From Candidatus Obscuribacterales bacterium (GTDB lineage Bacteria; Cyanobacteriota; Vampirovibrionia; Obscuribacterales; Obscuribacteraceae): a DNA stretch of 64,000 nt. The stretch is taken from assembly GCA_965228855.1 (NCBI GenBank), contig CBDDIJ010000002.1, positions 512,001 to 576,000 of the forward strand, in the 5' to 3' direction. The notes below the pieces were generated by a model. The model was given only the letters and a program-made list of their open reading frames with translations, was not told the origin of the DNA and ran no database searches. The position numbers and the translations under genes were made by a program. Positions 27,599-59,259 of the stretch are shown here, piece by piece (position 1 is the stretch's first letter; each line of letters opens with the position of its first letter).

Positions 27599-27683
27599 CG
27601 CGAACCCGCTACTATATCACCCCAAAGACAGTTCAAGCACCGGGCGGGCTTTCGGACATCATGATCAGACTTGAGCTTTGCTT

Positions 27684-27735
27684 TGTCTACGAGCCATTGC
27701 CGCTTTTCGTGAAATCCGGCAATGTGTCATAGACA
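27684..27735. repeat. 52-bp dyad element, copy 2
   Basis: tgtcta-cgagccat-tgccg-cttttcgtgaaatc-cggca-atgtgtca-tagaca; CTACTATA at 27609, TATAGTAG at 27826. Confidence 0.9.
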
Positions 27736-27857
27736 AACAGGCAAAAAGATAACGGCTTCGGATAGGTGGGCGCCCGAAAGCCCCATGGGTTAACTACTCT
27801 GCCGGATTTGCTAAATACTGCCTTTTATAGTAGCAAAACCGAAGAGGCGAAGACCGC

Positions 27858-27876
27858 CAGGAACCGAGGGTTCCTG
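27858..27876 (-). terminator. Probable terminator of the ftsH operon
   Basis: caggaacc-gag-ggttcctg hairpin. Confidence 0.45.
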
Positions 27877-27959
27877 ACGATCTCCGGGGCGATTTTCGCA
27901 AGGTGTCGCGTGGGAAGATTCACCTTCCGCAAGCGCAACTCTGCAGAAATCGAAATAGC

Positions 27960-28172
27960 TCAGTCCTGGTCTTTGAACACGATCCCGATGGTGACGAGCA
28001 TGTTCAGGAAGGCGTTGACCATGAAGAACATGGTCCACTGCAGGTCGTTCGCTTCGTTGAAGTGGTGAGCTCCGACGAACGACGAGATGGTGATGAAGAG
28101 CGCGATGCAACCGCGAACGCGATCGCTCTTGCTCGAAATACCGGTCCCGGTGGGTTTGAACATCGGGGTCAT
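27960..28172 (-). CDS. 70-aa two-TM membrane protein translationally coupled to ftsH
   Basis: TAATG stop/start overlap with fts[18 protein letters not shown]...CIALFITISSFVGA...WTMFFMVNAFLNMLVTIGIVFK. Confidence 0.7.
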   Translation of the reverse strand: MTPMFKPTGTGISSKSDRVRGCIALFITISSFVGAHHFNEANDLQWTMFFMVNAFLNMLVTIGIVFKDQD

Positions 28173-30358
28173 TAGAGCACCTCCTTCTTCTTGGCGGGCG
28201 AGATGTCGATCACGAGCTTCTTGGGGTCGACCTTGGACGGATGGGTCTTCTTGAACTCCAGCCAATCCTGCTCGATCATGGTCTCCTTCTCGCGAAGGAT
28301 GGCGACGAGCGCTTCGAGGCGTTCCCTGTCGGTCTCGATGATGTAGACGGCGAGGTCGTAGCAGGCATTCGCGATGCGCCGCCACTCGTCGTCGATCTCG
28401 TCCATGAGCTTGGGACCGACCGAGGAGATCGGACCGCTGCCCATGCCGCGCATGCCAGTGCTGCCGCCGGCGCCGACCGAGATCATCCCGAGACGGGACA
28501 TACCCCAGCGCGTCACCATGGTGTGAGCCATACGGCAGCCCTGCTCGAAGTCGTTGGAAGCACCGCTGTCCATCTTGCCGAGCAGCACCATCTGAGCGGC
28601 ACGACCCGCCATCGCCATGACGATGCGAGCGACGCACTGCTCGAAGTCCATGCCGTAGCGATCCTCGCCGGGCATGCTCTGAACGTAGCCGAGCGCCTTG
28701 GACCGATTCATGATCGTGATCTTCACGACCGGGTCGGCACCAGGCATCACGTCGGTGGCGATGGCGTGACCGCCCTCGTGCACCGTCGTGTTGTTCTTGT
28801 TGTCCTCCGACATCGCCTTCTGGCGCTCGGGATTCGCACCGCCGTAGCGGACGAAATCGATGCCTTCGTCGAAGTCGGTGTTCAGGATGACGGCGCCGGC
28901 AGCCTGCAGGCTGGCAATCGCTTGCGCAATCGCAGCTTCCACGGCTTTCTCGTTGACCTTGCCATCGACCAGCGGAATTTCCGGCAGGTCGAAACCGTGA
29001 CGATCGGCGGCGAGGAGAGCAGCGCGGCTGCAAGCACCTTCGATTTCGGCGCCGCTGTAGCCGTAGGTGCGCTTCGCCAGAGCCGTCAGCTCGACGTCCT
29101 GAGCGAGCGGCTTGCCGCGGGTGTGGATCTTGAAGATGGCAGCGCGACCTTCAGTGGTCGGCAGATCCACCGTGACCTGCGCGTCGAAACGGCCCGGACG
29201 CAGAAGCGCGTCATCGAGCATGTCGACACGGTTGGTGGCGGCGAGCAGGAAGAGACCTTCGTTGTCGTTGATGCCGTCCATCTCGACGAGCATGGCGTTG
29301 AGCGTCTGTTCACGCTCCTGGTTGCTGCTCTCGCCGTGACCGCCACCGCGCTTGCCGCCCACCGCATCGATTTCGTCGATGAAGATGAAGTGCGGCTTGC
29401 CAGTTTTGCGAACCTTGGCACGACCGGACTCGAACATGTCGCGAACACGGGACGAACCCACGCCGACGAACATCTCGACGAAGTCGGAGCCGGAGGTTGC
29501 TTCGAACGAGCCGTCGGTTTCGCCCGCGAGGGCGCGTGCCAACAGCGTTTTGCCGGTACCCGGAGGTCCGACGAGCAGGATGCCCTTCGGCAGCTTGGCT
29601 CCGAAGAACTTGTAGAGCCAGCGACGCTTGACCGCCTTGGCGAGACGACGAAGTTCCTTGACCGCTTCATCGGCACCGGCGACATCGTCGAACGTCACCA
29701 CGCGCATCTGCTTCGTCTTGTCGTCCGAACTCGTCGAGCGAGCCTTGCCGAAATTGGCCATCTTGCCACCCGGACCGGCAGCACCCATGGCCGCGCGATT
29801 GCGGTTGGACATCCAGACCATGGCGAGAACGAGGATGACGATCGGACCGAAGGTCCAGGCGAGACGCTGAAGCGAAGAGGTGGAATCATCTTCCGCCTTC
29901 CAGAGAATCTTCTTCTCGCGCGCGGTCTTCAGGACCTCGGCACGGCCGCCCTGTTCAGGCAGGGTGACGAAGTACTTGGTCGAGTCACCGGTCTTGTAGA
30001 CGGCGATGCGGTCGACGCCGTTGAGGAAGGTGATCGAGCTCACGGCACCGGGGTTGGTGTCCATGAGGAGGAACAGCTCGGACGCCTGCATGTAGGCGGT
30101 CGGCTGAACGCCACGTCCACGAGACGGAGCGGCGGGTGAAGCGGGGGAGGTCTGGGTGCTGGTTCCGACTTGAGCTCCCGGCGCCTGAACGGCGGGGGGT
30201 GCCTTGGTCACCACGGGCGCGCCACGCGTGTGAACAGCGGGCGGGGTGACAGTGCGGACGGGTCCTTCCGAGGTGAGGACAAACCCGACAAACGCGGCAA
30301 TCAGCGGAATCGCAAGCATCCAGATGACGAACTGCTTGTTTTCAGGTGAGAGTTTCAT
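28172..30358 (-). CDS. ftsH: ATP-dependent zinc metalloprotease FtsH (divergent paralogue)
   Basis: Two TM helices, [11 protein letters not shown] pore loop, [38 protein letters not shown] 30358 after GGAG. Confidence 0.93.
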
Positions 30359-30831
30359 ATCCGTTACTCCAGATTTGAAGGCTGGATTAGACGCAGCCTT
30401 TGTCCGGCATATTTGCGGGACGAGCGAAAAAGGGTAAGAACACCGCTCGAGTGACTCGAACGATCCATGACGCGCTTGCAACTGAGACTCACCCACCGTA
30501 AAGACCCGCCGTCACTGTTTAAGACGCGCGAAATCTGATTTTGGAGGTGAAAAGGTTATTGTGCCTTGGTTTTCTCAGAGAGTTGCAGAAGCTGATATGT
30601 AATTCGAACCTACGCGCCGAGGCATCCTCATGACAATAGGCCGATAGTCGTAACTGACAACTATTTACCATATGAACTTTTATGTTTCCTTAAGAATCCT
30701 TGAAACCTAGCGCTAGATTAGCGTAGCGGCAGAGAAGACAGAGCCACTACTATCACATACAGGATCCGCAAAATCGTACAGAGCCCTAGCAGACCGGCTT
30801 TCCGGGTTCCAGCTATCCGTAGCCCCGAATT

Positions 30832-30883
30832 TGTCTACGAACGGATGACGGAATGCGAGAAAATCGGCATCCCCTGAGAGACA
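30832..30883. repeat. 52-bp dyad element, copy 3
   Basis: tgtcta-cgaacgga-tgacg-gaatgcgagaaaat-cggca-tcccctga-gagaca; CTACTATC at 30747, TATAGTAG at 30986. Confidence 0.85.
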
Positions 30884-31327
30884 AGCCGCCTTCTCAGGGC
30901 TAGACCCCGTTCGGCAAAATCTCTGCAGACCGAGCCGGGTCAACCTTCCTGACGATTCAGACGTGGCTCAAAGATTCTTATCCCGTATAGTAGCACGAGC
31001 AATACTAGCGCGAGCTGAGTCGTGCAGTAACAAAGCCGAAAAGGCTCACGGTTTCATATTGTATCTAGTTGTAAAGAGAATAGTTAATCAAACTTTTGAT
31101 GATTCAAAATATCCATTTCTGCTTGTCTAGATGTATCCACATCACTTCGATCTCTGAAGGCAACTTTCTCTCTAAAAACAGCGCCTCTAGCTCTAAATAG
31201 TTGCCTCTCTCTGAACGATTTGACCGTTGGTAGACAATCGCACGTTCGCACGTGGGGTTGTGTCGGTGGGTTCAATCCGCTGTGCGGGATGAATCCAGTG
31301 TCTTAGCTTTCGCATCAGGAGCGAATC

Positions 31328-31873
31328 ATGCAATTCTTCCGCATCAAAGTTGGCCAAGATAACGCACCGGTCATCGAGCCCTTCCTGGAATGGCTGCGTC
31401 TCGACGGCACGTCGTACATCTCGGTCGGCGGCTCCGGTCTGTCGTACATCTCGGTGGCACCGGAATTCCAAGCAGACGACCGCACCGGCCGCCTGCAGGT
31501 CGGCGACATTCGTCCCAACAGCCGCGGCGGTATCGAACTCTTCCCGCAGGGCATCATGCGCAACGGCGTGTTCATCCCGAGCAGCTCCGGCGCAGACGAC
31601 CGGGCTTTCGTGGTGCTCCCGTCCGGTGCCTACGACTTCCACGTCGACCGCGGTATCCACGCCGTTCCCCGGCGGGATCTGATGCAGGCTCTCAGCGTCG
31701 TTCTCAACCCCGGTGACGTCATCAAGGCTCTGCCGAAGGTGCGCACCATTCGCGAGATGGACGCCATCAAGCCGATGTATCTGCATTATCACGGCTTCTG
31801 CAAGCTGACGTTCTCGGCCGAGCAGCCCGCTGCTCTCACCGAGAACAGCAACGCCGAAGCCGCTCTCGCCTGA
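31328..31873 (+). CDS. Hypothetical protein
   Basis: 181-aa ORF, AGGAG RBS, strong C/G-ending codon bias. Confidence 0.75.
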   Translation: MQFFRIKVGQDNAPVIEPFLEWLRLDGTSYISVGGSGLSYISVAPEFQADDRTGRLQVGDIRPNSRGGIELFPQGIMRNGVFIPSSSGADDRAFVVLPSGAYDFHVDRGIHAVPRRDLMQALSVVLNPGDVIKALPKVRTIREMDAIKPMYLHYHGFCKLTFSAEQPAALTENSNAEAALA

Positions 31874-32057
31874 CGCGTAACGCTTAGCGCAGTCCGCGCC
31901 GATGAGGTTCATCGCAAGATGAGCTCGTCCCGCGGCTGCGCCACCGTCCGCGTTTTAACCGCGCATCGCACAAGCGATGTGTATCCCATCAACATGGTGC
32001 TCACGAAGCGAGCGTCAAGCTCGAGTCGTGCACTTCTTCTCACGAAGGAGACTAGCG

Positions 32058-32588
32058 ATGAACACGATCGCCAACGGCACCATCTCGCTGCGAGCTGCCC
32101 GTGAATGGTGCACTCGCGCGCATGGTAGCCAACTCTATGGAACCCTGCCCTACAACTACCATCTCGGCAAGACCGAGAACGTCGCTGTTCGGTTCGGTTT
32201 CGGCAAGGACACCGTCATCCGCATCTCGTGCTGGACGCACGACGTACCGGAAGACACCAAGAAGAAGCTCGAAGACCTTCTTCGCGCCGGCTTCCCCGGT
32301 CGCGTCGTTGAGATAACCTGGCGCGTCACCGACGAGCCCGGCGCCAATCGCAGCGACCGCAAGCGCAAGACCTATCCCAAGATTGCCGTCGATTGGAAGG
32401 CAGTCGTGGTGAAGCTCTGCGACCGGATCGCCAACGTCGAGCATTCCATCAACGATGCGAAGCGCATGCGCAAGAATCGTCGGGAATATCCGAAGTTTCG
32501 CGCGGCTCTCTTCAACGCGAACCACGACGCGCGAGTCCTCCGCATGTGGGCGCACCTCGACCAACTGATTCTGGGGAAAACTGCGTGA
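32058..32588 (+). CDS. HD-domain hydrolase, small alarmone hydrolase (Mesh1/SpoT-hydrolase)-like
   Basis: AHGSQ...PYNYHL, WTHDVPEDT, VKLCDRIANV; GAAGGAG RBS; no synthetase domain. Confidence 0.85.
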   Translation: MNTIANGTISLRAAREWCTRAHGSQLYGTLPYNYHLGKTENVAVRFGFGKDTVIRISCWTHDVPEDTKKKLEDLLRAGFPGRVVEITWRVTDEPGANRSDRKRKTYPKIAVDWKAVVVKLCDRIANVEHSINDAKRMRKNRREYPKFRAALFNANHDARVLRMWAHLDQLILGKTA

Positions 32589-32647
32589 ATTCAACAACTT
32601 CGCGTCCGGAGGATTGCGCAAGCGATGACTCCGACTGTTTAGACCTC

Positions 32648-32708
32648 GCTGGGAGATAGTTCTGCTGTTCGCCGAAACGCGAATAGCAGATTCTCTCCCA
32701 GCATTTTT
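32648..32708 (+). terminator. Intrinsic terminator after the HD gene
   Basis: Long hairpin gctgggaga...tctgctgttcgc-cgaaac-gcgaatagcaga...tctcccagc followed by attttt. Confidence 0.7.
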
Positions 32709-32829
32709 CGAACACGCTCTACTATACAGCTTCGTATTCGACACCAAGAGCACCAAGCAACGAAGAACCAAGCAGAACTGCAATCCCCGTAACCAAGGGG
32801 GAAGGATAGGCAATTCTGTAAGTTGGGTT

Positions 32830-32881
32830 TGGCTACGCTGCGTTGACGGAAATAGCGAAATTCGTCGCTCTCTCGTAGCCA
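32830..32881. repeat. 52-bp dyad element, copy 4
   Basis: tggcta-cgctgcgt-tgacg-gaaatagcgaaatt-cgtcg-ctctctcg-tagcca; CTACTATA at 32719, TATAGTAG at 32962 and 33067. Confidence 0.88.
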
Positions 32882-33074
32882 GACGAAGAGAGGTCAAGCT
32901 ATCTGGAGGCTGAGGACTCTGACTATACGGGCATTTTACGTGCTCACTGGAGACTGTCTTCTATAGTAGATAAGCCTCGGTAGCCAGACGAAGAGAGGTT
33001 AAGTTATCTGGAGGCCTAGGACCATGACTATACGGACATTTTACGCGTTCAACTGAGACTGTCTTCTATAGTAG
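32875..33074 (+). repeat. Imperfect tandem duplication, period 105 bp
   Basis: gtagccagacgaagagagg...gactatacgg...gagactgtcttctatagtag at 32875-32969 and again at 32980-33074. Confidence 0.9.
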
Positions 33075-33358
33075 CAGGGCCACGGACTTGAAAAAGGTTT
33101 GCTTGGTTTAGTAGGTTCTGGAATCGTTTTCTCTTCACACACACGATTTATCGAAAAAACAAATCAGGCGCCCCGACCGACAGTCACCGGAGAAGCTTCA
33201 CAGCTCCCGCGTTCGAACGACCTCGCCTGACTTTGACGATTTGCGCCGATACGGATGTTCCGCCTCGGTGATGCAAGCGCGTTTTCAAAACCGCTTGCGA
33301 CTTCCTAGCACCACCCGACTCGCACTGCGAGTTGCTCTCTTTTTTTGGGAGACCAAAG

Positions 33359-34135
33359 ATGGAACTCATTTTGCTCTGCCTGACCGCGCTCACGCTCGGT
33401 CTTCGACACGGGCTCGACTTCGACCACATCGCCGCTATGCTCGACATGGCGGGAACGACAGTAACCGATCCAAGCACCGGCAGTAAACACTTCAAGTTTC
33501 GAGAATTGATGCGCACGATGAAGCTACCGGCGCTCTATGTCTTCGGACACGGGCTCATGGTCGTTATCCTCGGCGTTGTCGCCCTCCTGTTCGGTACTGT
33601 CCTGCCCGATTGGATCGACACGTTGATGGAGCGAGTAGTCGGTGTAACGCTTCTCCTGCTGTCGCTCTATCTCATGTATTCACTTGTGCAGTTTTTCCGC
33701 AATGGGCAAGACCTGAAGTTGAAGAGCCGATGGATGGTGGTTTTCGAGTCGGTCGATCGGGGATGGCACTGGTTGGTTTCAAAACTGACCGGGCGAACAC
33801 ATGACCACAAACACGAGCTCAACTGGGACGCCAAAGGAGCTTTCCTGGTCGGTATGATTCACGGCATCGGGGCGGAAACCGGCACTCAGGTGTTGCTGTT
33901 TGCTTCGGTAGTCGGAACCGCGAACATCTTCTTCGGACTCGGCATGTTGAGCGCGTTCACGCTCGGCATGACGATTTCCACCCTGGCGATCGCAGCATGT
34001 GTTTCCGCGGGGTTGACGACATCGACGTATTTCAAGTCGATCGTGTTCATTCTCTGCTTGCTCGCAGCCATCTTCAGCTTCGTCGTCGGGCTCTACTTCA
34101 CGTTCGGCCTGTCGGTAATGCTTCCCTCCTTCTGA
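33359..34135 (+). CDS. NicO/HoxN-type nickel/cobalt transporter
   Basis: LGLRHGLDFDHIAA, GHGLMV, HDHKH and GMIHGIGAETGTQ motifs; multiple TM helices. Confidence 0.85.
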   Translation: MELILLCLTALTLGLRHGLDFDHIAAMLDMAGTTVTDPSTGSKHFKFRELMRTMKLPALYVFGHGLMVVILGVVALLFGTVLPDWIDTLMERVVGVTLLLLSLYLMYSLVQFFRNGQDLKLKSRWMVVFESVDRGWHWLVSKLTGRTHDHKHELNWDAKGAFLVGMIHGIGAETGTQVLLFASVVGTANIFFGLGMLSAFTLGMTISTLAIAACVSAGLTTSTYFKSIVFILCLLAAIFSFVVGLYFTFGLSVMLPSF

Positions 34136-34154
34136 ACCTCACCAGGAACTGCCT

Positions 34155-35417
34155 ATGGAAACGAACACGCGAGAACCGCTGCGCAAGCCCCCTGCGCGAG
34201 CCAGCAAACCGGCTCGCAGTTTTCTCTGGTTCATCTGCATCGCCTACGCTACGCAGGGAATCGCGCAGCACTTCTGCCTCATCGCCCAACCGCTCGATTA
34301 CTACATGCTGAAGCTTGGGAAAAACGCTGCAGACGTAGCAGCTGTTCTCTCAGTGCTGATGATTCCGTGGATGGTCAAACCTGTCTACGGTTTGGTGAGC
34401 GACTTTTTGCCGCTCTGGGCCTATCGGCGCAAATCGTATCTGGCTGTGGCTTATGGACTGGGAGCGCTCTTCTATGCCATCGCAGCGATGACCGGCTCGT
34501 TCAATCTGCTCATCGGAGCGCTCCTGCTAACAGCGACGGGCATGGCGATCGGCACGACAATCGTGAACGGTTTAACGCTCGAAGTCGGGCGTCCGACTTC
34601 GGAATACCGGTCATACCAGAGCATCCAGGCGGCGTGCTATTACACGGCGAACATTTGCTCGTTTTTGCTTGGCGGTCTGCTCTGCAGCACGTTGTTGCCG
34701 ACCGAGGCGTTGCAAACTGCCGCTTCGATTGCGGCCGTTCCCTGCGCGCTTACGGCAGTTGCTGCATGGAAGCTAATTCACGAGGACAAAACCGAACGCC
34801 AGAAGTTTTCCATCAGCACCGTATTCGGTATCATCCGCGAATTCAAAGTGCGCGGACTTCTGGTTGTGGCGACATTCCTCTGCTTCTGGAGCTTCAGTCC
34901 CGGCTTCGGCACTCCGCTGTACTTCTACGAGACCAAGGTCATCGGTTTCACTCAGATGTTCATCGGTCAACTGGGCGCCATCAACGCTTTCGGCATGTTC
35001 GCCGGTGCGATCGTTTTCAAATACGCGATGGATCGCAAGCTATCGCCCAGGGTTCAGACCGTGATTTCAGTGATTCTGGGCACGGTGAGCACTCTGGGCT
35101 ATCTCTGGCTCGCTGACGCCCAGACCGCAGTCGCGCTCGAATTTTTCCGCGGTGTTGCGAACATCATCGCTGTCCTGACGCTCTACGGATTGGCATCGGA
35201 TGTCAGTCCTCCGCGGCTGGAGAGCACGACAATTGCCGTTTTGATCGCAGCGTATAACATCGCCGAACAGCTCTCCAACGTGCTCGGAGCTCATTTGTAC
35301 ACCAACACCTTCAGCGAAGCATTCGCGCCGCTGATTTTGGCAAGTGCGCTGATGACGCTCGCTTGCCTGGTTTTCGTGCCATTCCTTCCCCAAAAGGATT
35401 TGCACCTAAAACCCTGA
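34155..35417 (+). CDS. MFS transporter, folate-biopterin (BT1) family-like
   Basis: IPWMVKPVYGLVSDFLPLWAYRRKSY BT1-type motif; about 12 TM helices. Confidence 0.85.
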   Translation: METNTREPLRKPPARASKPARSFLWFICIAYATQGIAQHFCLIAQPLDYYMLKLGKNAADVAAVLSVLMIPWMVKPVYGLVSDFLPLWAYRRKSYLAVAYGLGALFYAIAAMTGSFNLLIGALLLTATGMAIGTTIVNGLTLEVGRPTSEYRSYQSIQAACYYTANICSFLLGGLLCSTLLPTEALQTAASIAAVPCALTAVAAWKLIHEDKTERQKFSISTVFGIIREFKVRGLLVVATFLCFWSFSPGFGTPLYFYETKVIGFTQMFIGQLGAINAFGMFAGAIVFKYAMDRKLSPRVQTVISVILGTVSTLGYLWLADAQTAVALEFFRGVANIIAVLTLYGLASDVSPPRLESTTIAVLIAAYNIAEQLSNVLGAHLYTNTFSEAFAPLILASALMTLACLVFVPFLPQKDLHLKP

Positions 35418-35482
35418 ACGTTTGAAGGAGCGCTCAAGTCCACGGTTTCGCTTCTAGTGTCGAAACAAAATGCAACCACCCT

Positions 35483-35534
35483 AATCTCGAACCGCATCAG
35501 TTCCCAGACTTGATGCGGTTCGAGATTGTTTTTT
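35483..35534 (+). terminator. Intrinsic terminator after the BT1-like MFS gene
   Basis: Perfect 17-bp stem aatctcgaaccgcatca / tgatgcggttcgagatt followed by gtttttt. Confidence 0.75.
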
Positions 35535-35730
35535 CGCCGAGAACGATTGACTAATTTTTCTTTGCGCAGCTATGTGACATTCTATAGTAGCTATGCCTAA
35601 CAGCCCAAATCGGCGAGACAATCCCAAATCGATGGCAGCACGAGAGAAAAGTAGCAAGGAAAGTTTCATGTGAATGGAGACCGGTTTTGAACCGATCTCC
35701 ATTCCACGACGTAAGCGTTTCAATCAAACG

Positions 35731-36009
35731 CTAGCGGTAGTACCGACGCCAGTACTTGCCGTCATCTTCATCATCGGGCGCGGCAAGCGAGTCGCGGTCG
35801 AATCGGTCACCACTCGAATCCTGAACACGTTCGGTGCCAGGATCGCTTGCCTTCAGGACATCGCGCGCGGAAACCGACTGAGCAGACCGCGCAGCGAAAC
35901 GCGCGGTCTTAGCACGCGAGTGCATGCGCCGCTTCGCGAGTGAACGACGAACGGCAATGAACAACCCGACGATTACCGCCAGAATGAGAACAGCAATGAT
36001 CAACTTCAT
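35731..36009 (-). CDS. Small single-pass membrane protein
   Basis: MKLIIAVLILAVIVGLFIAVRR...; AGGAG RBS; hairpin at 35672-35704 downstream. Confidence 0.65.
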   Translation of the reverse strand: MKLIIAVLILAVIVGLFIAVRRSLAKRRMHSRAKTARFAARSAQSVSARDVLKASDPGTERVQDSSGDRFDRDSLAAPDDEDDGKYWRRYYR

Positions 36010-36047
36010 GTTGAGCACTCCTTTTGTTTGTTTACGGGAGACAGGCT

Positions 36048-37301: not shown

Positions 37302-37792
37302 GCTCCTTTTGAAAAAGTCGTCTGTCGTTCCGCTGAGAGCAGAGAGGCAGAAAATAGACTGACGAATATGGTTCTTTAAGTGTTGAGGCAGTAGATTGGG
37401 TTTCGGAACTGATTGTTAAACTTTAGGCTTTAAACTTCGCCTGGTAAAGAACTGGATGAAGGATGATGTTTCACTCTTTCTTTGAAAGGACCGACCGGAA
37501 CGGCAGCCCAAACGTCCGCTCAACAACCGTTTTCAGAATTTTCACAACTGAAAGCAGCGAGCGGCATGAGTTTTATTTTCAGCTGAGCATTCGCTGAACT
37601 CCTTAGCGAGGGTAGCGCAAACTGGCATCCGGTCGGATTGTTCTGCTTGCTGCAGGGACGAGGTCGTCCATGAGCACTCGAATTGCTTCATCCTGCTGTC
37701 GCCACCAGATGCAGTGCAAATACAATTCACGCTCGCCACCATATGCAGTAGCACAGAAAGTTCGTGTCTTGCTGCTGGTTCGATTGTTATGA

Positions 37793-43314: not shown

Positions 43315-43452
43315 TCGCACTCGCTGCGGGCAGGCTCTTGTCAAACGGAGTCCTGCTCGCAAGCGAGATCGTTCCACCCAATAACCGCACCACATCCGGT
43401 GCATGAGGAACGGAACACATCCGCTTCTCAAACCTGACGAAAAGGACTCTAC

Positions 43453-43944: not shown

Positions 43945-44368
43945 CTGCCGACGAGCTGACTCGCCGCCTCGCCTGATGGCGAGCGGACTGAATGCAGACG
44001 CCAATGGGCAGCCGACAGCTCTGCGGTAGAGAATCCCTGCTCACGAACCCGTTCTCTCAGCGCACGCGGAGCTCGTTTCCGACCAGCCGGTTTGAAACGC
44101 AGCTCCGCGTTGTACTGCGAAAGCGCAAACGGTTTCGTCCCCAAGAAAAACCAAAGTGGTTTGCCTGGGTCGACTTGTGCAGACTGCGCGAAGATCTGCA
44201 CAGGCCGACTTGTTGTCGAGGATGGCGACATCCTTTCAGGCAGGTCGTCAACTGTTTCCTCCGGCGAGTTCACCTTAATTCGTGCAGCGCTGCTGAAATG
44301 TTAGCCGCCAAGCGGTTAGCATATCCGACGGTCGACAGACAACCGGCAGTCGGAAAAGGAACACAGTA

Positions 44369-45808: not shown

Positions 45809-45948
45809 GCCCGGAGCGCCCGTAACTACAAACCGCGAGGCTCGCATCTAGCCTGCCGATCGAACAGCGCAAAAGGTTTCTTGCTTGAAACCGATTGCGC
45901 TGTTTCAGTTCGTCGACAGGCTCATGGAGCCTCGCAGAGGTTTGCGTC

Positions 45949-47718
45949 ATGAAAACTCTATCTAACGCACTTCCATGGAAGCGCCTGGTTAAGGTCGGCA
46001 AACCGTTCTGGGTCTCAGAATCCAAATGGACGGGTTTCCTTCACCTCGGCCTCGTGCTCGGCTTACTCGCTGCCAACGCGGGCGTTGCTTACTTCATCAA
46101 CCGGAACGCCGGTGCCTGGATGGAGTCGATCCAGCTCAAGAAGGTCGACGACTTCTGGTATTACACGGCGGTCTACGGTGGTCTCATCCTGCTGGCCACG
46201 CCCGTGCAGGTCTTCTACGGCTACTTCCGCACGCGCCTTGCGCTCGTGTGGCGCCGCTGGCTCTCCACGAGCTTCTTCGCCGGGTACTTCTCGAATCAGG
46301 CGTACCTGAAGATGACGCGCGACAAGGAGCTGGACAACCCCGACCAGCGCATGGCGCAGGACGTCGACTCGTTCTGCAACTCGTCGGTCGGTCTGTTCAT
46401 CTCCATCATCGACGCCGTCGTCAATGTCACCATGTTCGCAGGTCTGCTCTGGTACCTCTCCGGAACGCTGACCTGGACCGTGATCGGCTATTCGGCGATG
46501 GGTTCGCTCATCGTCATCCTCATCGGTCGAGCTCTCGTCAAGCTCACCTTCAACCAGATGAAAACCGAAGCCGACCTGCGTTTCGGCCTGGCCGAAGTTC
46601 GCCGCGAGGCGGAAACCGTCGCGCTCTACCGCGGCGAGGCGCTGGCGATGGCACAGGCGAAAACCCGTCTGGGCCGGGTGATCGACACGCTCATGTCGAT
46701 CATGAACGTGAACCGAAACATCCAGCTCTTCACCAACGCCTACAACATGTTCGTGCCGGTCATCCCCGCTCTGATCATGGCGCCCCTGTATTTCAAGGGC
46801 ACGGCCAAGTTCGGCGACATCACCCAGGCGACCATGGCCTTCCAGGCTGTGTTCAACGGCGCGACCATCCTGATCGGTCAGTTCGGCGGCATCACCGCCT
46901 TCACCGCCACCATCAACCGCCTCGGTTCCTTCCTGGAAGGTCTCGAAGCGGCTGGCGTGGAGCGGGTTCCGGCCGGCAAGCGTATCAATGTGACCGAGGG
47001 CGATGAAGTCACCTTCGATAAGGTCACTGTCACCACCCCCGATACCGGCCGCGATCTGATTGTCGGTCTGACCGTCGGCGTGGGCAAAGGTAAGAGCATG
47101 CTCGTCACCGGACCTGACGGCTCCGGCAAGTCGTCCCTGCTCCGGGTGCTCACGGGAATCTGGACCACGGGTTCGGGCAACTTGCAGCGACCGACGAATG
47201 GCGAGGTCATGTTCCTCGACAAGTCGCCGTACCTTCCGCCGATGACGCTCCGCGAAGCGCTCTGCTTCCCGACCACGCTCAACTCGGCGAACGATGACGA
47301 CCGCCTGCAGCAGGTGCTCAACCTGGTCGACCTCGGCGACCTGCCGAAGAAGAGCGATGGTTTCGACACCGAGCAGACCTGGCGCGAGACGCTGTCTCCC
47401 AGCCAGCAGCAGCGCCTGGCTCTGGCGCGCATCATCAACCTGAAGCCCAAGTACGTCGTCATCGACGAGGCTTCGGCGTCCCTGGAAGCGGAGAACGAGA
47501 AGCTGCTCTATCAGCTCCTCACCACGATCGGAGCGACCTTCGTCAGCGCCGGCAACGGTAACATGCTGGCCAAGTACCACACTCAGGTCCTCGAGCTCGC
47601 CGGCGACGGCAGCTGGAAGGTGTATCCGGCATCGGACTATCAGCCCAAGACCTGGCGCTCGTTCCAGAACTTCGTGCCGGACTTCCTGCTCGGCGACAAG
47701 AAGGACAAGCGCAGCTAA
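45949..47718 (+). CDS. ABCD/YddA-type ABC half-transporter (TMD plus NBD), NBD degenerate
   Basis: LDNPDQRMAQD, EADLRFGL...EAETVALYRGE (EAA motif), GPDGSGKSSL, VVIDEAS. Confidence 0.9.
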   Translation: MKTLSNALPWKRLVKVGKPFWVSESKWTGFLHLGLVLGLLAANAGVAYFINRNAGAWMESIQLKKVDDFWYYTAVYGGLILLATPVQVFYGYFRTRLALVWRRWLSTSFFAGYFSNQAYLKMTRDKELDNPDQRMAQDVDSFCNSSVGLFISIIDAVVNVTMFAGLLWYLSGTLTWTVIGYSAMGSLIVILIGRALVKLTFNQMKTEADLRFGLAEVRREAETVALYRGEALAMAQAKTRLGRVIDTLMSIMNVNRNIQLFTNAYNMFVPVIPALIMAPLYFKGTAKFGDITQATMAFQAVFNGATILIGQFGGITAFTATINRLGSFLEGLEAAGVERVPAGKRINVTEGDEVTFDKVTVTTPDTGRDLIVGLTVGVGKGKSMLVTGPDGSGKSSLLRVLTGIWTTGSGNLQRPTNGEVMFLDKSPYLPPMTLREALCFPTTLNSANDDDRLQQVLNLVDLGDLPKKSDGFDTEQTWRETLSPSQQQRLALARIINLKPKYVVIDEASASLEAENEKLLYQLLTTIGATFVSAGNGNMLAKYHTQVLELAGDGSWKVYPASDYQPKTWRSFQNFVPDFLLGDKKDKRS

Positions 47719-47929
47719 TACCACCTGTGGTGCCAGCGCGAGAAACACTTGCGGTTTCACTGGTATCATTAATGGTGCTAGCCACCAAGAAGGGCGATGG
47801 ACGCACACACGCCCACCGTCAAACGCGGTGAAGGACCGGCTTCCGCTTTTCGGTTCTTCACCGCGCCACTTCGCCCGTACTCAAAGCGGAAACAACTTCG
47901 TGCAAAGAAAAAAACGAAAGGGAATTTCA

Positions 47930-48364
47930 ATGACCCCGGAAAAGTCTGTCCAGAGCGCTGGGCAACTGAGATTCATGCTGGAGCGCATGAAGGCGATTCA
48001 GGCTCGCTTCGAGTCGCTGCCCGCTCCGAAGGATTCCGCATCGTTCAGCCGCCGGCACGCGCTCGGCAAGCTGCTTCGCACCACGGACCACCTGACCAAG
48101 GCGCTGACCATCAACTTCGGTCACAGCCCCGAAGGTCTCGCCGTGCTGTCGGCCACCACCGTCGGTGGCAAAGGTCTCGACAGCGAGCAGGTCGAATTCA
48201 TCCGCGACCAGTGCGCGGACGAACTCGCGTATAAGCACGCGTTCAGCGACAATCTCACCGACGCCATCATCATCGAGGCAAGCGGCATCGAGATTCAGGA
48301 GATGCTGACGTTCCTCCAGCCCCTGGTGGATCGCTGCGCCTCCCTGCTCACCGCGGAGTGCTGA
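47930..48364 (+). CDS. Hypothetical protein
   Basis: 144-aa ORF from ATG 47930 after AAAGGGA; biased codon usage. Confidence 0.7.
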   Translation: MTPEKSVQSAGQLRFMLERMKAIQARFESLPAPKDSASFSRRHALGKLLRTTDHLTKALTINFGHSPEGLAVLSATTVGGKGLDSEQVEFIRDQCADELAYKHAFSDNLTDAIIIEASGIEIQEMLTFLQPLVDRCASLLTAEC

Positions 48365-48730
48365 CCTCGCGCCTCCCAGCGTGACGGACGCACTTGACCA
48401 GGGCGAGTCCCAATCACCACCTGCGGTGCAGCACGCATCACAGGCGGAGAGAACGGACTCGCCCACGCAGCTGGAAGACGCCGGCGCCCTGCGCGTCGGC
48501 GCCTTTCTGCGCCCTGAAAATGTTGGACGTCACAGCATCATTTTTTGTTCGAAATTCGAACGATGCTGCAGAGAAACCGACAAGGGAGCTCACAGGAAAC
48601 CCCCGAGCGGGTTGAAACCGCTCCGCTCAGATTGCCCACGGGCAAGTCTTCGAGCCGTGAAACCGCAGCCGCGTGAAGCGCAAACGGTTTTCCCGGACAT
48701 CCTCAGAAACTCCCCAAACAGGAACATCAA

Positions 48731-50590
48731 ATGAAAGAATCATCGACCTCTTCGCTCCTCAATCTCCGCCACGCTCGCCTCGCCGCCTGGGTGACGAGCA
48801 TGGACGCGCTTCTCCAGCCCGACCGCATCATCGTGTGCGACGGTTCGCAGGACGAGTTCGACCGCCTCACGGCGGAGATGGTGGCGAGTGGTACCCTGAC
48901 TCGACTCAACGCCGAGCTGCGCCCGAACAGCTTCCTGGCTCGTTCGGACGTGTCCGATGTGGCGCGCGTCGAAGAGCGCACCTTCATCTGCTCGAAGGAC
49001 AAGGACGACGCCGGTCCGACCAACAACTGGATGGACCCTGCCGAGGCGAAAGCCACCCTGTCCGCCCTGTTCGACGGCGCCATGCGCGGACGCACGATGT
49101 ACGTGATTCCGTTCAGCATGGGCCCGCTCGGCTCCGATATCTCGCATATCGGCGTCGAGATCACCGACTCGCCTTACGTGGTCGCCAGCATGCGCATGAT
49201 GACGCGCATGGGCTCCGCGGTTCTCGACGAGCTCGGCGACGACGGCGAGTTCATCCCCTGCCTGCATTCGGTCGGCGCGCCGCTGTCCGAAGGTCAGGCC
49301 GACGTGAGCTGGCCGTGCAACAAGACCAAGTACATCTGCCACTTCCCGGAGAGCCGCGAAATCTGGTCTTTCGGCTCGGGCTACGGCGGCAACGCCCTGC
49401 TCGGCAAGAAGTGCTTCGCGCTGCGCATCGCCTCCAGCATGGCTCGCGAAGAAGGCTGGCTCGCCGAGCACATGCTCATCCTCGGGCTCGAATCGCCCGA
49501 AGGCGAGAAGAAGTACATCGCCTGCGCGTTCCCGAGCGCCTGCGGCAAGACGAACCTCGCCATGCTCGTGCCGCCCGCCGGCTTCGACGGCTGGAAGGTG
49601 ACGACGGTGGGCGATGACATCGCCTGGATCAAACCGGACGCGACGGGAACGCTGCGCGCCATCAACCCGGAAGCCGGCTACTTCGGCGTCGCTCCCGGTA
49701 CGTCGCCGAAGACCAACCCGAATGCGATCGCCTCTCTCGGTCGCGACTGCATCTTCACGAACGTCGCGCTTACCCCGGACGGCGACGTCTGGTGGGAGGG
49801 TCTGACCGACGAAGCGCCCGCTTCCCTGATCGACTGGGAAGGCCGCGAATGGACGCCGGGTTGCGGTCGCAAGGCTGCCCACCCGAACGCCCGCTTCACC
49901 GTCGCCGCCACCAACTGCCCGTCGCTCGACAGCGAATGGGACAACCCGGAAGGCGTGCCGATTTCGGCATTCGTCTTCGGCGGACGGCGCGAGAGCACGG
50001 TACCGCTGGTGGTGCAGTCGCACAACTGGCTCTACGGTGTCTACATGGGCGCGACCCTCGGCTCCGAAACCACGGCGGCTGCTGCCGGCGCGGTCGGACA
50101 GGTGCGCCGCGACCCGATGGCGATGCTGCCCTTCTGCGGCTACAACATCGGCGACTACTTCGCGCACTGGCTCGAAATCGGTCGCAAGATCGAGGGCGTC
50201 AACGACGAGAACTGGCTCTGGGGCAGCGACGACGCCAAGCTCCCGCCGGTGTTCTGCGTCAACTGGTTCCGCAAGGACGAGAACGGCAAGTTCATCTGGC
50301 CGGGCTTCGGCGACAACATGCGCGTGCTGAAGTGGATCTTCGAGCGCACCAATGGCGGTGGCGGCGCGGAGACCACGGTGCTGGGCTGGAAGCCTCGCCA
50401 CGAGGACCTGGACTGGACCGGTCTCGACTTCTCGCCGGCGGCATACGCTGCGGCAAGCAAGATCGACCCCGCCGAATGGACCGCCGAGATCGCTCTCCAG
50501 AAGGAACTCTTCGCGAAGGTCGGCGGACGCCTGCCGGGCTGCCTCAACGCCCTGATCGGCGGAATCGAAACCGAGTTCAAGAAGCTCTAA
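48731..50590 (+). CDS. pckG: Phosphoenolpyruvate carboxykinase (GTP)
   Basis: [67 protein letters not shown]. Confidence 0.97.
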
Positions 50591-50639: not shown

Positions 50640-50680
50640 GAAGGGAACCAAGATTTTGTCTTGGTTCCCTTCTCTTTTTT
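50640..50680 (+). terminator. Intrinsic terminator after pckG
   Basis: gaagggaaccaaga-ttttg-tcttggttcccttc followed by tctttttt. Confidence 0.85.
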
Positions 50681-50785
50681 AAAAACCCTCTACTATATGA
50701 TCCCGTTTCTCTCAAAGCTCAAAGAGTCGACAGTGCGTACGTTTCGAGCATTCGAACAGTTTCTGCCTTAGCCCGAAGAGCCATT

Positions 50786-50837
50786 TGGCTATCCCACGAT
50801 GCCGGATTTCGCCAAAAGCGTCATTCCAGGATAGACA
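50786..50837. repeat. 52-bp dyad element, copy 8
   Basis: tggcta-tcccacga-tgccg-gatttcgccaaaag-cgtca-ttccagga-tagaca; CTACTATA at 50690. Confidence 0.92.
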
Positions 50838-50953
50838 CGAAGGGCGTCAACTCGCCTACTATATACTTTCGTTTCCCTTAAAGACCCAAAGCGCTGACTA
50901 TTCGCCGCTTTTGAGCCTTCGGGCAATTTCGAGACTAACCAGAAACAGTCATC

Positions 50954-51005
50954 TGTCTATCCCACGATGCCGGTTTTCGCCAAAAGCGTCATTCCAGGAT
51001 AGACA
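50954..51005. repeat. 52-bp dyad element, copy 9
   Basis: tgtcta-tcccacga-tgccg-gttttcgccaaaag-cgtca-ttccagga-tagaca; CTACTATA at 50856, CATAGTAG at 51084. Confidence 0.92.
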
Positions 51006-51098
51006 AAAGACCCCTAGCGTCTTAGCCTTATCCCCGAACCTCAATGCGCAAGGTACTTCGCAGCAATGCGATGCGCTACATGGCATAGTAGTAATTTT

Positions 51099-52037
51099 TT
51101 AGTGCAACTTTCCAAGCAACAGGGAGTATCCGAACTCGACAAAGGCAGTCGGGGAGTTGCTCGTGAGCCCGAAGCCGAACCGGGCACTTAGTTGCTGGTT
51201 GCGGCGAAAGCGATAGAGACCACCAGCATCTATGATCTGGTTTGACCTGGTAGACCTCTGAAAGTTTCCCACATATTCGATGAAGCAGTCGCCTTTCGGG
51301 CCCAGTTTTCGAATCAAATCACAGGTCGGCTGGTAAACGACATTTTTGTCTACCGATGGTACTTCGCCCTGATTCTGAGACTCTTCGGCTTCAGTTTTGA
51401 TAAAAACCGCATGCGCAGATCGGACGGTCCAGTTTTCTGAAAATTGTCGACCTGTAACAATCTGCACGAACGGGTCCACGGCGTTGCTCGTAAGACCATT
51501 GCTTCCTGTTGGCACAGTGAAACCTGGTATCACTGCCAGGTCGATTCTCTTGGGAAGCGGTCCCAATCTAATTTTTGCTCCAACGCTCATGTCCGCAACG
51601 CCCGACACCGCCGGATGCACGCCCTGGACAAGCAGGTAGTTAGGAACTGCAAATCGCAACTCCGCGCGGGGAAGCAAGCCGAGTCGCACATCAGTTTGCG
51701 GAATATTGAAGCTTCGCCCCCTCGATTCCTTGGTTAGCGCCAAGCCGTTTTCCGCTTGAATGTAGTTGGGTGGAACAGTAAACGGCGATGGCGTCACAGA
51801 CGGGCGATCAGTGTCTATCTCCGGACCCGGTGAACTCGTGGATGTCTGTGCACTCACACTCAACGCTGAAAACAACAGCAAACACAGTGACGCAGAAGAC
51901 GCTCGTTTAAAAATGGCACGCCACCAAGGGAAAGTCTCAAGACAGGAACATCTTAGTACCTGGCTCGAAAAAAATGCTGTTCCTGAACAACAAAATGTGA
52001 CTGTTTGAACGCAAACCGAAATCGGCTTTGGATTCAA
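51099..52037 (-). CDS. Putative outer-membrane beta-barrel 'transporter' (MetA-pathway/phenol-degradation-like family)
   Basis: IDTDRPS..SPFTVP...QAENG N-terminal motif, GVADMSVGAK, alternating beta-strand pattern; true start probably downstream of 52037. Confidence 0.7.
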   Translation of the reverse strand: MNPKPISVCVQTVTFCCSGTAFFSSQVLRCSCLETFPWWRAIFKRASSASLCLLLFSALSVSAQTSTSSPGPEIDTDRPSVTPSPFTVPPNYIQAENGLALTKESRGRSFNIPQTDVRLGLLPRAELRFAVPNYLLVQGVHPAVSGVADMSVGAKIRLGPLPKRIDLAVIPGFTVPTGSNGLTSNAVDPFVQIVTGRQFSENWTVRSAHAVFIKTEAEESQNQGEVPSVDKNVVYQPTCDLIRKLGPKGDCFIEYVGNFQRSTRSNQIIDAGGLYRFRRNQQLSARFGFGLTSNSPTAFVEFGYSLLLGKLH

Positions 52038-52385
52038 AACATCTGGAACTCACTCCTCTCCACTCTTTGAAAGAATTAGCGCTAGCAACACCAATTGGAT
52101 CTTACATAGATAGGTGCTCCAGCAAAGGGTTTTATTTGCGGAAACGAATTCAGCACGCGTACGGTGAAGACATCATCACTCAACAACCGAATCTCTGGAA
52201 TATCTCTCCCGCAGCCGCTTCTGTCTAGCCCACAACTTCTCCTCGACGCAGTTTCACTGTGACGGTGAGATCGGCAATGCACAGAATCGGCAGCAAACGC
52301 GTTCGAGAGCAGTCCCCGAAGATTCACGCCTCGTCCCAGTTTTGCCACTCGGTGGCAGGACATATTTTTCACACTGGAGGTTGCT

Positions 52386-53405
52386 ATGGCAACAACTTAC
52401 AGCGCCTCGTCTGCGGGGCGTGCACTGTATCGCGCCGCGTGGGAAGTTGTCGGTCAAAAGTTCTTCGACACCGAGAAGCTCGCTGATTGGTCGTCCTGGG
52501 AACACCGGTTCGACGAGCTCATCGATGGGGAGGAGACCGCGCTGCGTTTCATCGAGCAGATGCTGGCGTCGCTGGGGGACAGCTACACCAGGCTCGTCGG
52601 TTTCACCCTGAACAACGACACAGACGCGCAGCCCTCTTCCCCTGCCAGCCAAGACACGCAGCCGGCCTCTGCCGAAACTGACGCGTCCAAATCGACCAAC
52701 GATGTTCTGGTCAGGAAACTGTCCGGCAACATCGGCTACATCCGGATCTTCTCGTTCGAAAACCCGAGCATCGTTGAGCAAGTCACCCAGGGCGTGGAGG
52801 CTGTTCGCTCTTGCGACGCCTTCATCATCGACTTGCGCGACAACGGCGGCGGCAACGTCGACTGGGCATGCAGCTGCGCGGAATTCTTCGTCGCGAAGGG
52901 ACCGGTCGGCAGCATCGTGCGCAGGCTTCCGGACGGGAGAATGTGGCATCGCGATGTCGCTCTGTTCGACGAAGGAATGCTCTTCATCACGAAGGTGACC
53001 GGCGAGGAAGAGCGCATGGAAGGTTTCAGGCGTCGCGATCCCATCACCGTCGGCAAACCTGTCGTCGTGCTCATCAACGAGCATACCGGCAGCTCGGCGG
53101 AGATGATGGCTGCGGCGATCATTGAGAGCGACAAGGCAAGCGGTTTGGTGACAAGCATGGGCGCTCCGAGCTTCGGCAAGGGCATCGCTCAAGCCACCGT
53201 TTCGGTGCTGGACAAGGTCTCCATCCAGATCACCTGCGCTCGCTTCATGTCTCCGACCGATGTCTGGTTCGGCGACGCGCAGCAGACGGTTCGCAACCCT
53301 GTCGTGCCGGACGTTCTCGTGCCGGAAACCGCGGACGACGGTCCGAACGCGCAACTCTCAGCCGCCTTCAACTGGCTGAAGACCCGCATCCAGACCGCCG
53401 CCTGA
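52386..53405 (+). CDS. S41-family (CtpA/Prc-like) peptidase lacking PDZ domain and signal peptide
   Basis: MLASLGDSYT, IGYIRIFSF, IIDLRDNGGG, VLINEHTGSSAE (Ser), SFGKG (Lys), VVPDV; GGAGG RBS. Confidence 0.88.
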   Translation: MATTYSASSAGRALYRAAWEVVGQKFFDTEKLADWSSWEHRFDELIDGEETALRFIEQMLASLGDSYTRLVGFTLNNDTDAQPSSPASQDTQPASAETDASKSTNDVLVRKLSGNIGYIRIFSFENPSIVEQVTQGVEAVRSCDAFIIDLRDNGGGNVDWACSCAEFFVAKGPVGSIVRRLPDGRMWHRDVALFDEGMLFITKVTGEEERMEGFRRRDPITVGKPVVVLINEHTGSSAEMMAAAIIESDKASGLVTSMGAPSFGKGIAQATVSVLDKVSIQITCARFMSPTDVWFGDAQQTVRNPVVPDVLVPETADDGPNAQLSAAFNWLKTRIQTAA

Positions 53406-53409
53406 ACCG

Positions 53410-53450
53410 AGACAGGGGATGAACACAACCGTTCTTCCCCTGTCTTCTTC
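53410..53450 (+). terminator. Intrinsic terminator after the S41 peptidase gene
   Basis: agacagggga-t-gaac...gttc-t-tcccctgtct followed by tcttc. Confidence 0.7.
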
Positions 53451-53557
53451 CAAATCATGTCTACTATATGCCACCGTCTGTCACCAAGTCCCCGAGCGTC
53501 CATGCGCAGTGAATCTCGGGCATCGCGCAGTTTAGGCTTTCTACGAAAAACGCCTTT

Positions 53558-53609
53558 TGGCTATCCCACGATGCCGGATTTCGCCAAAAGCGTCATTCCA
53601 GGATAGACA
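53558..53609. repeat. 52-bp dyad element, copy 10 (identical to copy 8)
   Basis: tggcta-tcccacga-tgccg-gatttcgccaaaag-cgtca-ttccagga-tagaca; CTACTATA at 53461, TATAGTAG at 53688. Confidence 0.92.
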
Positions 53610-53696
53610 CGAGACCGTCCGCGCCTTGCCTCAATCCCCAAACCTCAATACGCGAGAGACTTTATAGCGATCATAGCTTTTATACGCTATAGTAGC

Positions 53697-59251: not shown

Positions 59252-59259
59252 AGGGAAGC

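Follow-up and report, generated by a model that had tools for sequence, protein, structure and literature searches.

In the genome of an uncultured Candidatus Obscuribacterales bacterium related to cyanobacteria (GenBank assembly GCA_965228855.1), a 17-bp dyad, referred to here as the box, lies at a nearly constant distance behind predicted transcription terminators, and a 50-bp repeat, the core, is attached to most of these boxes through an arm of conserved length. These sites were analysed in a stretch of 64,000 nucleotides (the window; positions 512,001 to 576,000 of contig CBDDIJ010000002.1, or G000:C2:512001-576000), in the rest of the genome and in related genomes. The new result is a host box behind predicted terminators which marks unstable gene junctions genus-wide and has probably been colonised by the core repeat. 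Both the link to terminators and the link to breakpoints are real and strong. The preliminary description had taken the sites for an integron-like cassette system delimiting gene modules or, alternatively, for an element that simply targets terminators. A cassette mechanism is not demonstrated and did not pass any test to which it could be put; the alternative is nearer the truth, with the refinement that the likely target is an older host box behind the terminator.

The source assembly (G000) comprises 8.2 Mb in six contigs; coordinates without prefix are window positions, and C2:, C3: and C5: denote positions on its contigs. Genes were called with our own two-model codon scorer, by which single calls may be wrong, and family names in the window are those of Pfam. 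The dnaA gene at C2:793 kb coincides with a turn of the GC skew, and the ~1 Mb between C2:62000 and C2:1125000 is called the origin domain. Among the relatives, G007 is ~95% identical to G000 and colinear with it over C2:61-122 kb and 566-1177 kb; its assembly has no close match to window positions 24001-54665, so that the sites at 27609-53695 are not comparable there. G002, G005 and G006 are mutually closer (83-86%, 11 genes) than to G000 (75%).

The box behind predicted terminators

The seven terminator hairpins first noted in the window all fold (-14.8 to -38.6 kcal/mol), and the claim that a box lies 10-30 bp beyond each of them is borne out more tightly than stated, the gap from stem to box being 13-17 nt in 7/7 cases. 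It is 16 nt for DUF218 (hairpin 2535-2574, box 2501-2518, minus strand), 13 nt for the ftsH operon (hairpin or hairpins 27846-27876, that stem being the one measured from; box 27816-27833, minus strand), 16 nt for the HD-domain gene (32648-32708 and 32719-32736, plus strand), 14 nt for the deaminase (hairpin 40044-40078, plus strand; the box is doubled over 40093-40137, with copies at 40093 and 40120, and the gap is taken to the nearer), 17 nt for pckG (50640-50675 and 50690-50707, plus strand), 15 nt for the S41 peptidase (53410-53450 and 53461-53478, plus strand) and 17 nt for yihY/BrkB (61185-61216 and 61156-61173, minus strand). Genome-wide, a hairpin of -14 kcal/mol or better ends 8-22 nt upstream of 62 of the 164 non-tandem boxes vs 6 of 60 control points behind coreless genes. 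Because their U-tails are weak (mean 2.6 T in 8 nt, equal to the rest of the genome), these hairpins are terminators by prediction only.

A minority of boxes (35/146) face gene starts, as at both ends of the element at 30747-30993, whose left box begins at 30747 and whose right box ends at 30993. The left box of the element with core 27685 (27609-27626, plus strand) directly follows the stop codon of an ABC permease gene. In the origin domain, 128 of the 148 boxes behind 3' ends carry a core. Coreless boxes in the window are found at 7688-7705 (plus strand), between two convergent genes, at 315, and ending at 35590.

Boxes without cores in related genomes

The box occurs in relatives in which the core is not found. 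With a matrix trained on G000 boxes alone, a box was detected behind 19/63 orthologs of core-adjacent genes in G002 vs 13/112 controls (p=0.004) and behind 7/38 vs 1/73 in G005 (p=0.002); 20 of these 26 matches sit 8-18 nt behind a hairpin. No core was found in the 643,511 bases of G002 or the 374,980 bases of G005 that were searched. For example, the G002 ortholog of the DUF218 gene has a box 18 nt behind its own hairpin and no core, and boxes are also present behind the G002 ortholog of the HD gene and the G002 and G005 orthologs of yihY. The presence of the box in coreless relatives at the same genes suggests that it is older than the core and its likely target.

In G002 and G005 the box consensus is a 17-bp dyad, TACTA-N7-TAGTA, the far half often being TCGT, beyond which nothing is conserved. 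About half of the boxes in these genomes face a convergent 3' end. A fixed pattern combining hairpin and box matches 41/465 gene ends in G002, 15/281 in G005 and 1/250 in G000 outside the domain, counts that are partly circular since the pattern was written once the G002 and G005 matches were known. A box lies downstream of the deaminase unit in 6/6 congeners and in one other genus, and by the fixed pattern it stands 6-25 nt behind a strong hairpin in five of the six congeners. Intergenic self-comparison and a generic 17-16-17 scan revealed no alternative 50-bp core family at the same junctions of G002 and G005, the scan being insensitive (9 matches in 559 kb of the domain of G000 itself).

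A separate 28-bp palindrome centred on TTCAACCGTTAACGGTTGAA is present in about 15 intergenic regions each of G002 (L198-L202, G002:C3) and G005 (L210-L218), clustered in one area; its strict pattern gives 0 matches in G000. In appearance it resembles a site that organises the chromosome, of parS type or otherwise.

Gene order at the junctions

Junctions that carry a core in G000 are places where gene order often differs between species. Orthologs of core-flanking genes are still adjacent in G002 in 6/26 cases vs 55/70 for long coreless regions, leaving aside regions that lack one ortholog (40 with a core and 54 without). With the count restricted to gene ends that have a predicted terminator, 6/54 core ends retain their neighbour in G002 vs 74/115 other ends, and 3/29 vs 55/85 do so in G005. 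The same ends are unstable between G002 and G005, both coreless in the stretches read, where the neighbour is kept at 7/24 vs 37/50 (p=0.0004). These junctions are therefore unstable with or without the core, which is not needed for shuffling. The box itself marks such junctions: between G002 and G005, ends with a box keep their neighbour in 5/16 cases vs 82/122 for ends with a terminator only (p=0.011). The earlier idea of the sites as shuffling junctions thus stands insofar as units differ between species there, and falls insofar as it made the core responsible. An assignment of the rearrangements to the lineage of G000 is not supported, given the closer kinship among G002, G005 and G006 and the short stretch (40 kb) compared from G001, which is more distant.

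In G002 and G006 the window genes lie in the same neighbourhood, coreless and in another order. As first described, sites are present on both sides of the ftsH gene with its small open reading frame (ORF), of the pair at 31328-32588 and of the block at 41266-50590. The first unit (27960-30358, minus strand) comprises an extra ftsH copy (AAA+M41; GC3s, the G+C fraction at synonymous third codon positions, 0.79) and the small ORF (0.84); in G002 and G006 it is located between the 42982 and GH30 homologs, with GC3s of 0.75 and 0.71. The pair at 31328-32588 (plus strand; a gene of unknown family and the HD gene, GC3s 0.80 and 0.76) lies behind asparaginase in G002, G005 and G006. The MFS gene, the 37793 ORF and the adenosine deaminase gene (GC3s 0.82) at 36048-40025 are inverted relative to G002 and G006. 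The block at 41266-50590 (plus strand; pepA, small ORFs, GH30, ABCD and pckG, GC3s 0.81-0.91) is not a single block in relatives and cannot be upheld as a module inherited whole, since its counterpart in G002 and G006 encloses the ftsH operon and excludes the 43453 gene. This last gene (43453-43944, GC3s 0.88) encodes a 163-residue protein with a partial M41 peptidase match and is conserved at another position in G002, G005 and G006. Finally, the 51099 gene (GC3s 0.56) and the S41 gene (0.78), at 51099-53405, are enclosed between two near-identical elements, and the S41 gene is found elsewhere in G002.

Between G000 and G007, 64/69 core intervals are common to both genomes. Gene gain or loss affects 8/65 core intervals vs 9/184 long coreless ones (p=0.08), excluding four intervals with 1.25-kb insertions at cores; these insertions (C2:774.7k, 858.6k, 988.1k and 1120.8k) occur in G000 only and are absent from G007. 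Ten intervals were selected, of which eight were alignable, with breaks just outside the box, in the arm or at the core edge; one diverged alignment ends near the core centre. Two element-bracketed genes of G007, an SDR gene (G007:C3:6366-7262) and the gene at G007:C3:330694-331170, are missing from G000. No inversion at a core was observed over the parts compared.

Contigs from four public runs, which may derive from the source sample, were compared over 26001-46000 and include long pieces (X1, X2) that cross the cores at 27685, 30833 and 32831 unchanged, contigs being unable to show rare circles; where joints occur at cores, they resemble further copies of the repeat. Tandem-repeat scars at core-equivalent junctions are inconsistent, with 1/58 vs 10/109 in G002 and 5/33 vs 3/68 in G005.

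Architecture of the core element

The core consists of two 17-bp halves of the form G[TG]C-N11-G[AC]C flanking a 16-bp spacer. A matrix search finds 210 cores in G000, a shuffled contig giving nothing above -12 bits. Of these, 174 lie inside the origin domain, and all 174 are intergenic. Core-bearing regions are frequently convergent (56/130 vs 25/374 coreless regions of at least 150 bp) and seldom divergent (9/130 vs 109/374). The strict core pattern has 139 matches in G000, 128 in G007, 2 in G006 and 0 in a further 38 genomes searched. Of the G006 matches, the one on a 2.4-kb contig 86% alike to G000 may be stray. Of 47 public stretches with the same core, 44 are labelled Candidatus Obscuribacterales.

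The distance from the core to the start of the outer box is 85-91 or 95-102 bp, most often 87 or 99. The intervening arm has a conserved length but shows weak sequence conservation. Inverted boxes at both ends are present in 30-32 of the 210 cores, whereas in most copies at most one arm is detectable. Within tandem arrays, a gap of 7-11 nt separates a core from the box that follows it in 14/26 cases. Of the 164 non-tandem arms, 99 point, from box to core, against the replication fork and 65 with it, and this direction flips at the origin (p=0.01). The core halves are not self-complementary beyond their consensus (8.0 vs 9.5 of 17), and pairing between halves is barely above random (11.2 vs 10.2). 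The units are ~150 bp long without an ORF, and the window has no Rfam match. No target-site duplication was seen by eye at three window elements, and the single filled/empty pair examined was not clean.

In the window, the matrix places cores at 27685-27734, in the gap between the ABC and ftsH operons, at 30833-30882, between the ftsH 5' region and the 31328-32588 pair, and at 32831-32880, behind the HD gene. Three cores follow the deaminase (40207-40440), the first at 40207 and those at 40318 and 40391 belonging to a tandem subtype of 73-bp period. Behind pckG (50690-51091), two head-to-tail box-arm-core units (cores 50787-50836 and 50955-51004) are completed by a right arm ending in a box. 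The two-armed element at 53461-53695 (core 53559-53608) has a core 48/50 identical to the element at 50787-51004; the two form direct repeats bracketing the 51099 and S41 genes. A further two-armed element with a doubled right box lies behind DUF218 (2248-2518, core 2346-2395), and a one-armed element behind yihY (61035-61173, minus strand; core 61035-61084, box ending at 61173). A second repeat family, of 102-bp period, replaces the left arm of this last element at 60606-60979 and is also present at C2:145.6k, 218.9k, 318.2k, 907.9k, 1040.8k and 1043.7k, C5:885.5k and C5:1605k.

Relationships between copies

Related copies share the core and one arm, rarely both arms. In 27 pairs of distant copies that share an arm, identity spans the whole core (0.80-0.85 vs about 0.61) and drops to background directly past its far edge. 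The copied unit is therefore box-arm-core, which is also the unit of the tandem arrays. The same 27 pairs lead us to reject a crossover at the core centre, where breakpoints had been expected: homology runs through the core and stops at the far edge. A crossover of attL/attR type inside the box is likewise not supported, as the 7-nt spacers of the two end boxes are unmatched (2.3 vs 2.1 of 7 in 32 two-armed elements). Local duplication is not a general route of spreading, neighbouring elements being no more alike than distant ones (median 31/50 for both), and only 2/129 neighbouring pairs are near-identical. The two end boxes of an element would, if fused, give a symmetric dyad as seen in G002.

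A candidate nuclease

At C2:102755-104022, and likewise in G007, a gene for a 257-residue PLD-HTH protein (C2:103074-103847 in G000) lies between two cores, in the order box, arm, core, gene, core, arm, box. Another PLD-HTH copy replaces the core between the two arms of an element (C2:1002489-1003349), and G007 has a 54% identical paralog inside arrays of a GTCAAT core subtype. Pfam assigns PLDc_2 and HTH_3/HTH_31 domains, the PLDc_2 score of the flanked copy being just under the curated cut-off. One PLD-type HxK-x4-D motif per chain is present in three of the five G000 copies read. Relatives of the protein occur in 56/104 genomes of the family, some matching the PLD part only, and many have palindromes of their own nearby. 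In another genus (L169), a different 17-16-17 repeat adjoins the PLD-HTH gene. The flanked gene likely encodes the protein that spreads the cores. The PLD-family nuclease BfiI passes through a covalent DNA intermediate and is capable of joining DNA (PMC2475615).

PLD-HTH genes of other genera also lie beside 45-70 bp palindromes of their own (L163 in G048, L179 in G070, L173, L177, L180 and L181), and the central spacer of the L163 palindrome resembles that of the G000 core. One array of the 102-bp-period family adjoins a further PLD-HTH gene (C2:1042618-1043481), which suggests one repeat family per paralog.

Codon usage of the neighbouring genes

The preliminary description had recognised a class of genes with C/G-ending codons, and this class is distinct: GC3s is 0.76-0.91 for ftsH, the 31328-32588 pair, the deaminase, pepA, ABCD, pckG and S41 vs 0.48-0.61 for 14086-27598 and 0.50-0.53 for 58352-60513. 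Membership of most site-adjacent genes holds for ftsH, the deaminase, pckG, S41 and others, and not for DUF218 (0.60) or yihY (0.66). Such usage is bimodal only inside the origin domain. GC3s exceeds 0.75 in 22-84% of genes per 100 kb over C2:0-1.1 Mb, vs 0-4% in the remainder of C2, C3 and C5, with 20% in the last 38 kb of C5 and high values on C4 as well. About half of the genes in the domain have GC3s near 0.8, intermixed with ordinary genes.

The idea that the sites delimit modules of distinct codon usage is not sustained. Inside the domain, median GC3 is 0.75 for genes with a core at the 3' end (n=148) vs 0.70 (n=230; p=0.011), so that the suggested association exists, as a small effect. 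The class switches at 49% of core regions vs 41% of long coreless regions, neighbours agree in class within segments at 0.80 vs 0.77, and 42 of 105 multi-gene core-to-core segments are of one class. Moreover, 263 orthologs in coreless G002 have correlated GC3 (r=0.92), with 128/133 high genes high there too, and the shift between the genomes is 0.009 next to cores and 0.010 elsewhere. The homolog of the deaminase has GC3s of 0.55-0.80 in 19 other family genomes, at least 0.67 in 16 of them. That cores brought or created the class is thus rejected, since orthologs in coreless relatives have the same GC3 and the class is family-wide. Neither plain high expression nor a position effect of the origin accounts for it: genes of the ribosomal-protein region, named from their N-termini, have GC3s of only 0.43-0.66, and dnaA itself has 0.54. 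High expression under another growth state may still play a part.

Fourfold sites have largely turned over between G000 and G002 (identity 0.53 vs 0.40 by chance) while their GC content stays at 0.8; the class is therefore probably maintained. Low-GC3 copies of ftsH, pepA and pckG exist outside the domain, and the additional copies in the window are 47%, 43% and 65-68% identical to them; the high-GC3 class includes several extra copies of ftsH, pepA, ABCD and S41. Carried from earlier on by the accessory genes around the origin, the class shares with the cores only its neighbourhood. The codon result is a useful negative, in that this family-level feature, probably maintained, does not record recent capture at the sites.

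Assembly observations

Over C2:1-100 kb the GC content is 63%, and G007 passes from the end of C5 almost directly to C2:61.5 kb; contig C4 has one half at 46% GC and the other at 64%. The oddities of C2:1-61000 and C4 may reflect a large insertion, a mis-join or contamination. Arrays of tRNA genes are located at C3:724.5-728.0 kb (21 genes) and C3:1529.8-1530.7 kb (5 genes). The end of a contig labelled as an Acidobacteria bin (L106-L108) is ~94% identical to window 52.1-55.3 kb and 84% over 50.7-51.9 kb; it has one element more, at window ~52.0 kb, and three tandem units instead of two downstream of pckG. This contig seems joined inside pckG and is probably a chimeric assembly.

A proposed two-layer site and its alternatives

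The explanation we favour, with about even confidence, is a two-layer site: a host dyad box at the ends of transcription units, colonised by a REPIN-like repeat. The first layer would be the 17-bp box, ~13-17 bp behind the predicted terminators of stand-alone, origin-near units throughout the genus, and a putative site for a host protein. The second would be the 150-bp arm-plus-core repeat, attached to most boxes in the G000/G007 lineage and likely spread by the PLD-HTH nuclease. HTH dimers may read the two 17-bp core halves, and the PLD domain may cut or join at the core edge. The box, as a second 17-bp dyad 87 or 99 bp off, distances about one helical turn apart, would then serve as a docking mark. 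Genes are probably gained, lost or moved at these places since insertion just past a terminator breaks neither gene nor promoter, and repeated cutting at junctions by this nuclease family possibly contributes. If this is correct, the repeat family finds safe landing places through a host mark at a fixed distance behind terminators and not through the hairpin alone. It would also imply that transcription units end in a site for a host protein, from which places of genome rearrangement could be predicted, and would make a PLD-fold enzyme a candidate mover of DNA.

Several observations weigh against this explanation. All relatives are metagenome-assembled genomes read in part only. A box is detectable at only 18/55 terminated orthologs in G002 and 6/32 in G005, and only 5/16 box-bearing ortholog pairs have it in both genomes, so that the box turns over; in a family-wide count of the box pattern no genome is clearly above the reversed control, although this genus has larger ratios than most other genera. 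Many of the 27 arm-sharing pairs come from one tandem subfamily and are not independent. Between G000 and G007 the core halves are 96% identical and the arms 89%, and cores conserved in place fit a maintained host site as well as a selfish repeat. Finally, the 17-16-17 geometry is clear at only one PLD-HTH locus outside G000 and G007 among 34 loci scanned.

A true cassette system without an integron integrase, in which box or box plus core is the recombination site for whole units and is perhaps driven by the PLD-HTH protein, would amount to a gene-shuffling system unrelated to integrons. It would account for the strong enrichment of breakpoints and for the 51099 and S41 unit between near-identical direct copies; its best support comes from the two element-bracketed G007 genes missing from G000 (C3:6366-7262 and C3:330694-331170). 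Two indels that break 7-16 nt outside the box and the symmetric dyad expected from fused end boxes point the same way. However, the end-box spacers do not match, near-identical neighbouring pairs are rare, recent gain and loss is weakly enriched, G000 and G007 are colinear over the parts compared without inversion at a core, the segments between cores are mostly multi-gene and of mixed strand, and no clean empty site was found. Such a system is quite unlikely. The more elaborate version, an undescribed integrase-free system of this genus in which PLD-HTH nucleases, each with its own 17-16-17 core, dock at the host dyad behind each terminator, where they cut and join DNA and thereby capture and reshuffle complete units within the 1-Mb origin domain, seems similarly improbable.

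It is rather unlikely that the box is a partly bidirectional promoter of -10 type restarting transcription directly past the terminator, with arm and core transcribed as a small RNA whose length fixes the distances. The sequence TACTAT fits the TAnnnT pattern of -10 elements, the dyad supplying one per strand, and the loss of homology between copies at the far core edge could correspond to the 3' end of an RNA. The dyad would give starts about 8 bp apart, and divergent starts about 10 bp apart are common in bacteria (PMC12825309). Yet about half of the G002 and G005 boxes, facing a convergent 3' end, have no gene to drive, the core halves show little of the pairing such an RNA would suggest, and a sigma-70 scan of 27400-41400 did not pick the boxes. 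Repeats might instead land anywhere and survive only at unconstrained junctions behind terminators where genes turn over. Instability independent of the core agrees with this, as does the preference of REP-type repeats for convergent regions (PMC3184786). Already weakened by the 13-17 nt spacing, which it leaves unexplained together with the recurrence of the box behind these genes where relatives lack the core, the existence of two fixed arm lengths and the stability of most box-free terminators, absence of targeting is a poor prospect.

Comparison with known systems

A literature search with poor coverage of subscription journals turned up no description of the box, of the core or of a transposase of PLD type. 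The repeated site at gene 3' ends and the junctions with species-variable gene content recall integrons, on which the cassette analogy rested. The units here differ in being multi-gene, on both strands, with room for promoters and with terminators of their own, and their genes are inherited across the genus. The integron integrase model TIGR02249 is above cut-off in 0/4 genomes (G000, G007, G002 and G005; best G000 score 87 vs 265 bits), and the R''/R' ends of attC sites are present in 0/210 cores. Single co-oriented promoterless ORFs are absent as a rule: 18/129 core-to-core segments hold one gene, 37/111 multi-gene segments are on one strand, and the median distance from core to start codon is 429 bp. 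With no IntI, no attC ends and multi-gene, mixed-strand segments, the arrangement is therefore not an integron.

Xer cer/psi and resolvase res sites combine a core with an accessory dyad at helically phased distances, as do the elements described here, which differ in having no shared crossover spacer, in breaking homology at the core edge and not its centre, and in having no recombinase gene tied to them. The inverted boxes resemble the terminal inverted repeats of miniature inverted-repeat transposable elements, but the two ends are not copied as one unit. Group IIC introns insert behind intrinsic terminators (PMC4424553); they share with the present elements the fixed position just behind a (here predicted) hairpin and a mild fork-direction bias, whereas the units of this genome lack intron RNA and reverse transcriptase, and a sequence box, not the hairpin alone, marks the place. 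With PLD-family nucleases such as BfiI, the PLD-HTH protein shares the HxK-x4-D motif and fusion to a DNA-binding domain; it differs by a C-terminal XRE-type HTH and by flanking repeats, its nuclease activity being predicted.

The closest likeness is to REPIN-RAYT systems (PMC5581495; PMC3184786). Here too there are hundreds of extragenic palindromic repeats with a bias towards convergent 3' ends, some of them in tandem arrays, an enzyme gene of low copy number with its own repeats on either side (PLD-HTH between two cores, in G000 and G007) and putative insertion sequences inserting into the repeats. In contrast, the flanked gene encodes a PLD-HTH protein and not a HUH (Y1) transposase, the core resembles a pair of 17-bp duplex sites more than a hairpin, and each unit keeps a spacing of 87 or 99 bp to a second dyad, which other species have on its own; the copies also cluster round the origin. 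By this comparison, the system would work most like REPIN-RAYT with a different enzyme.

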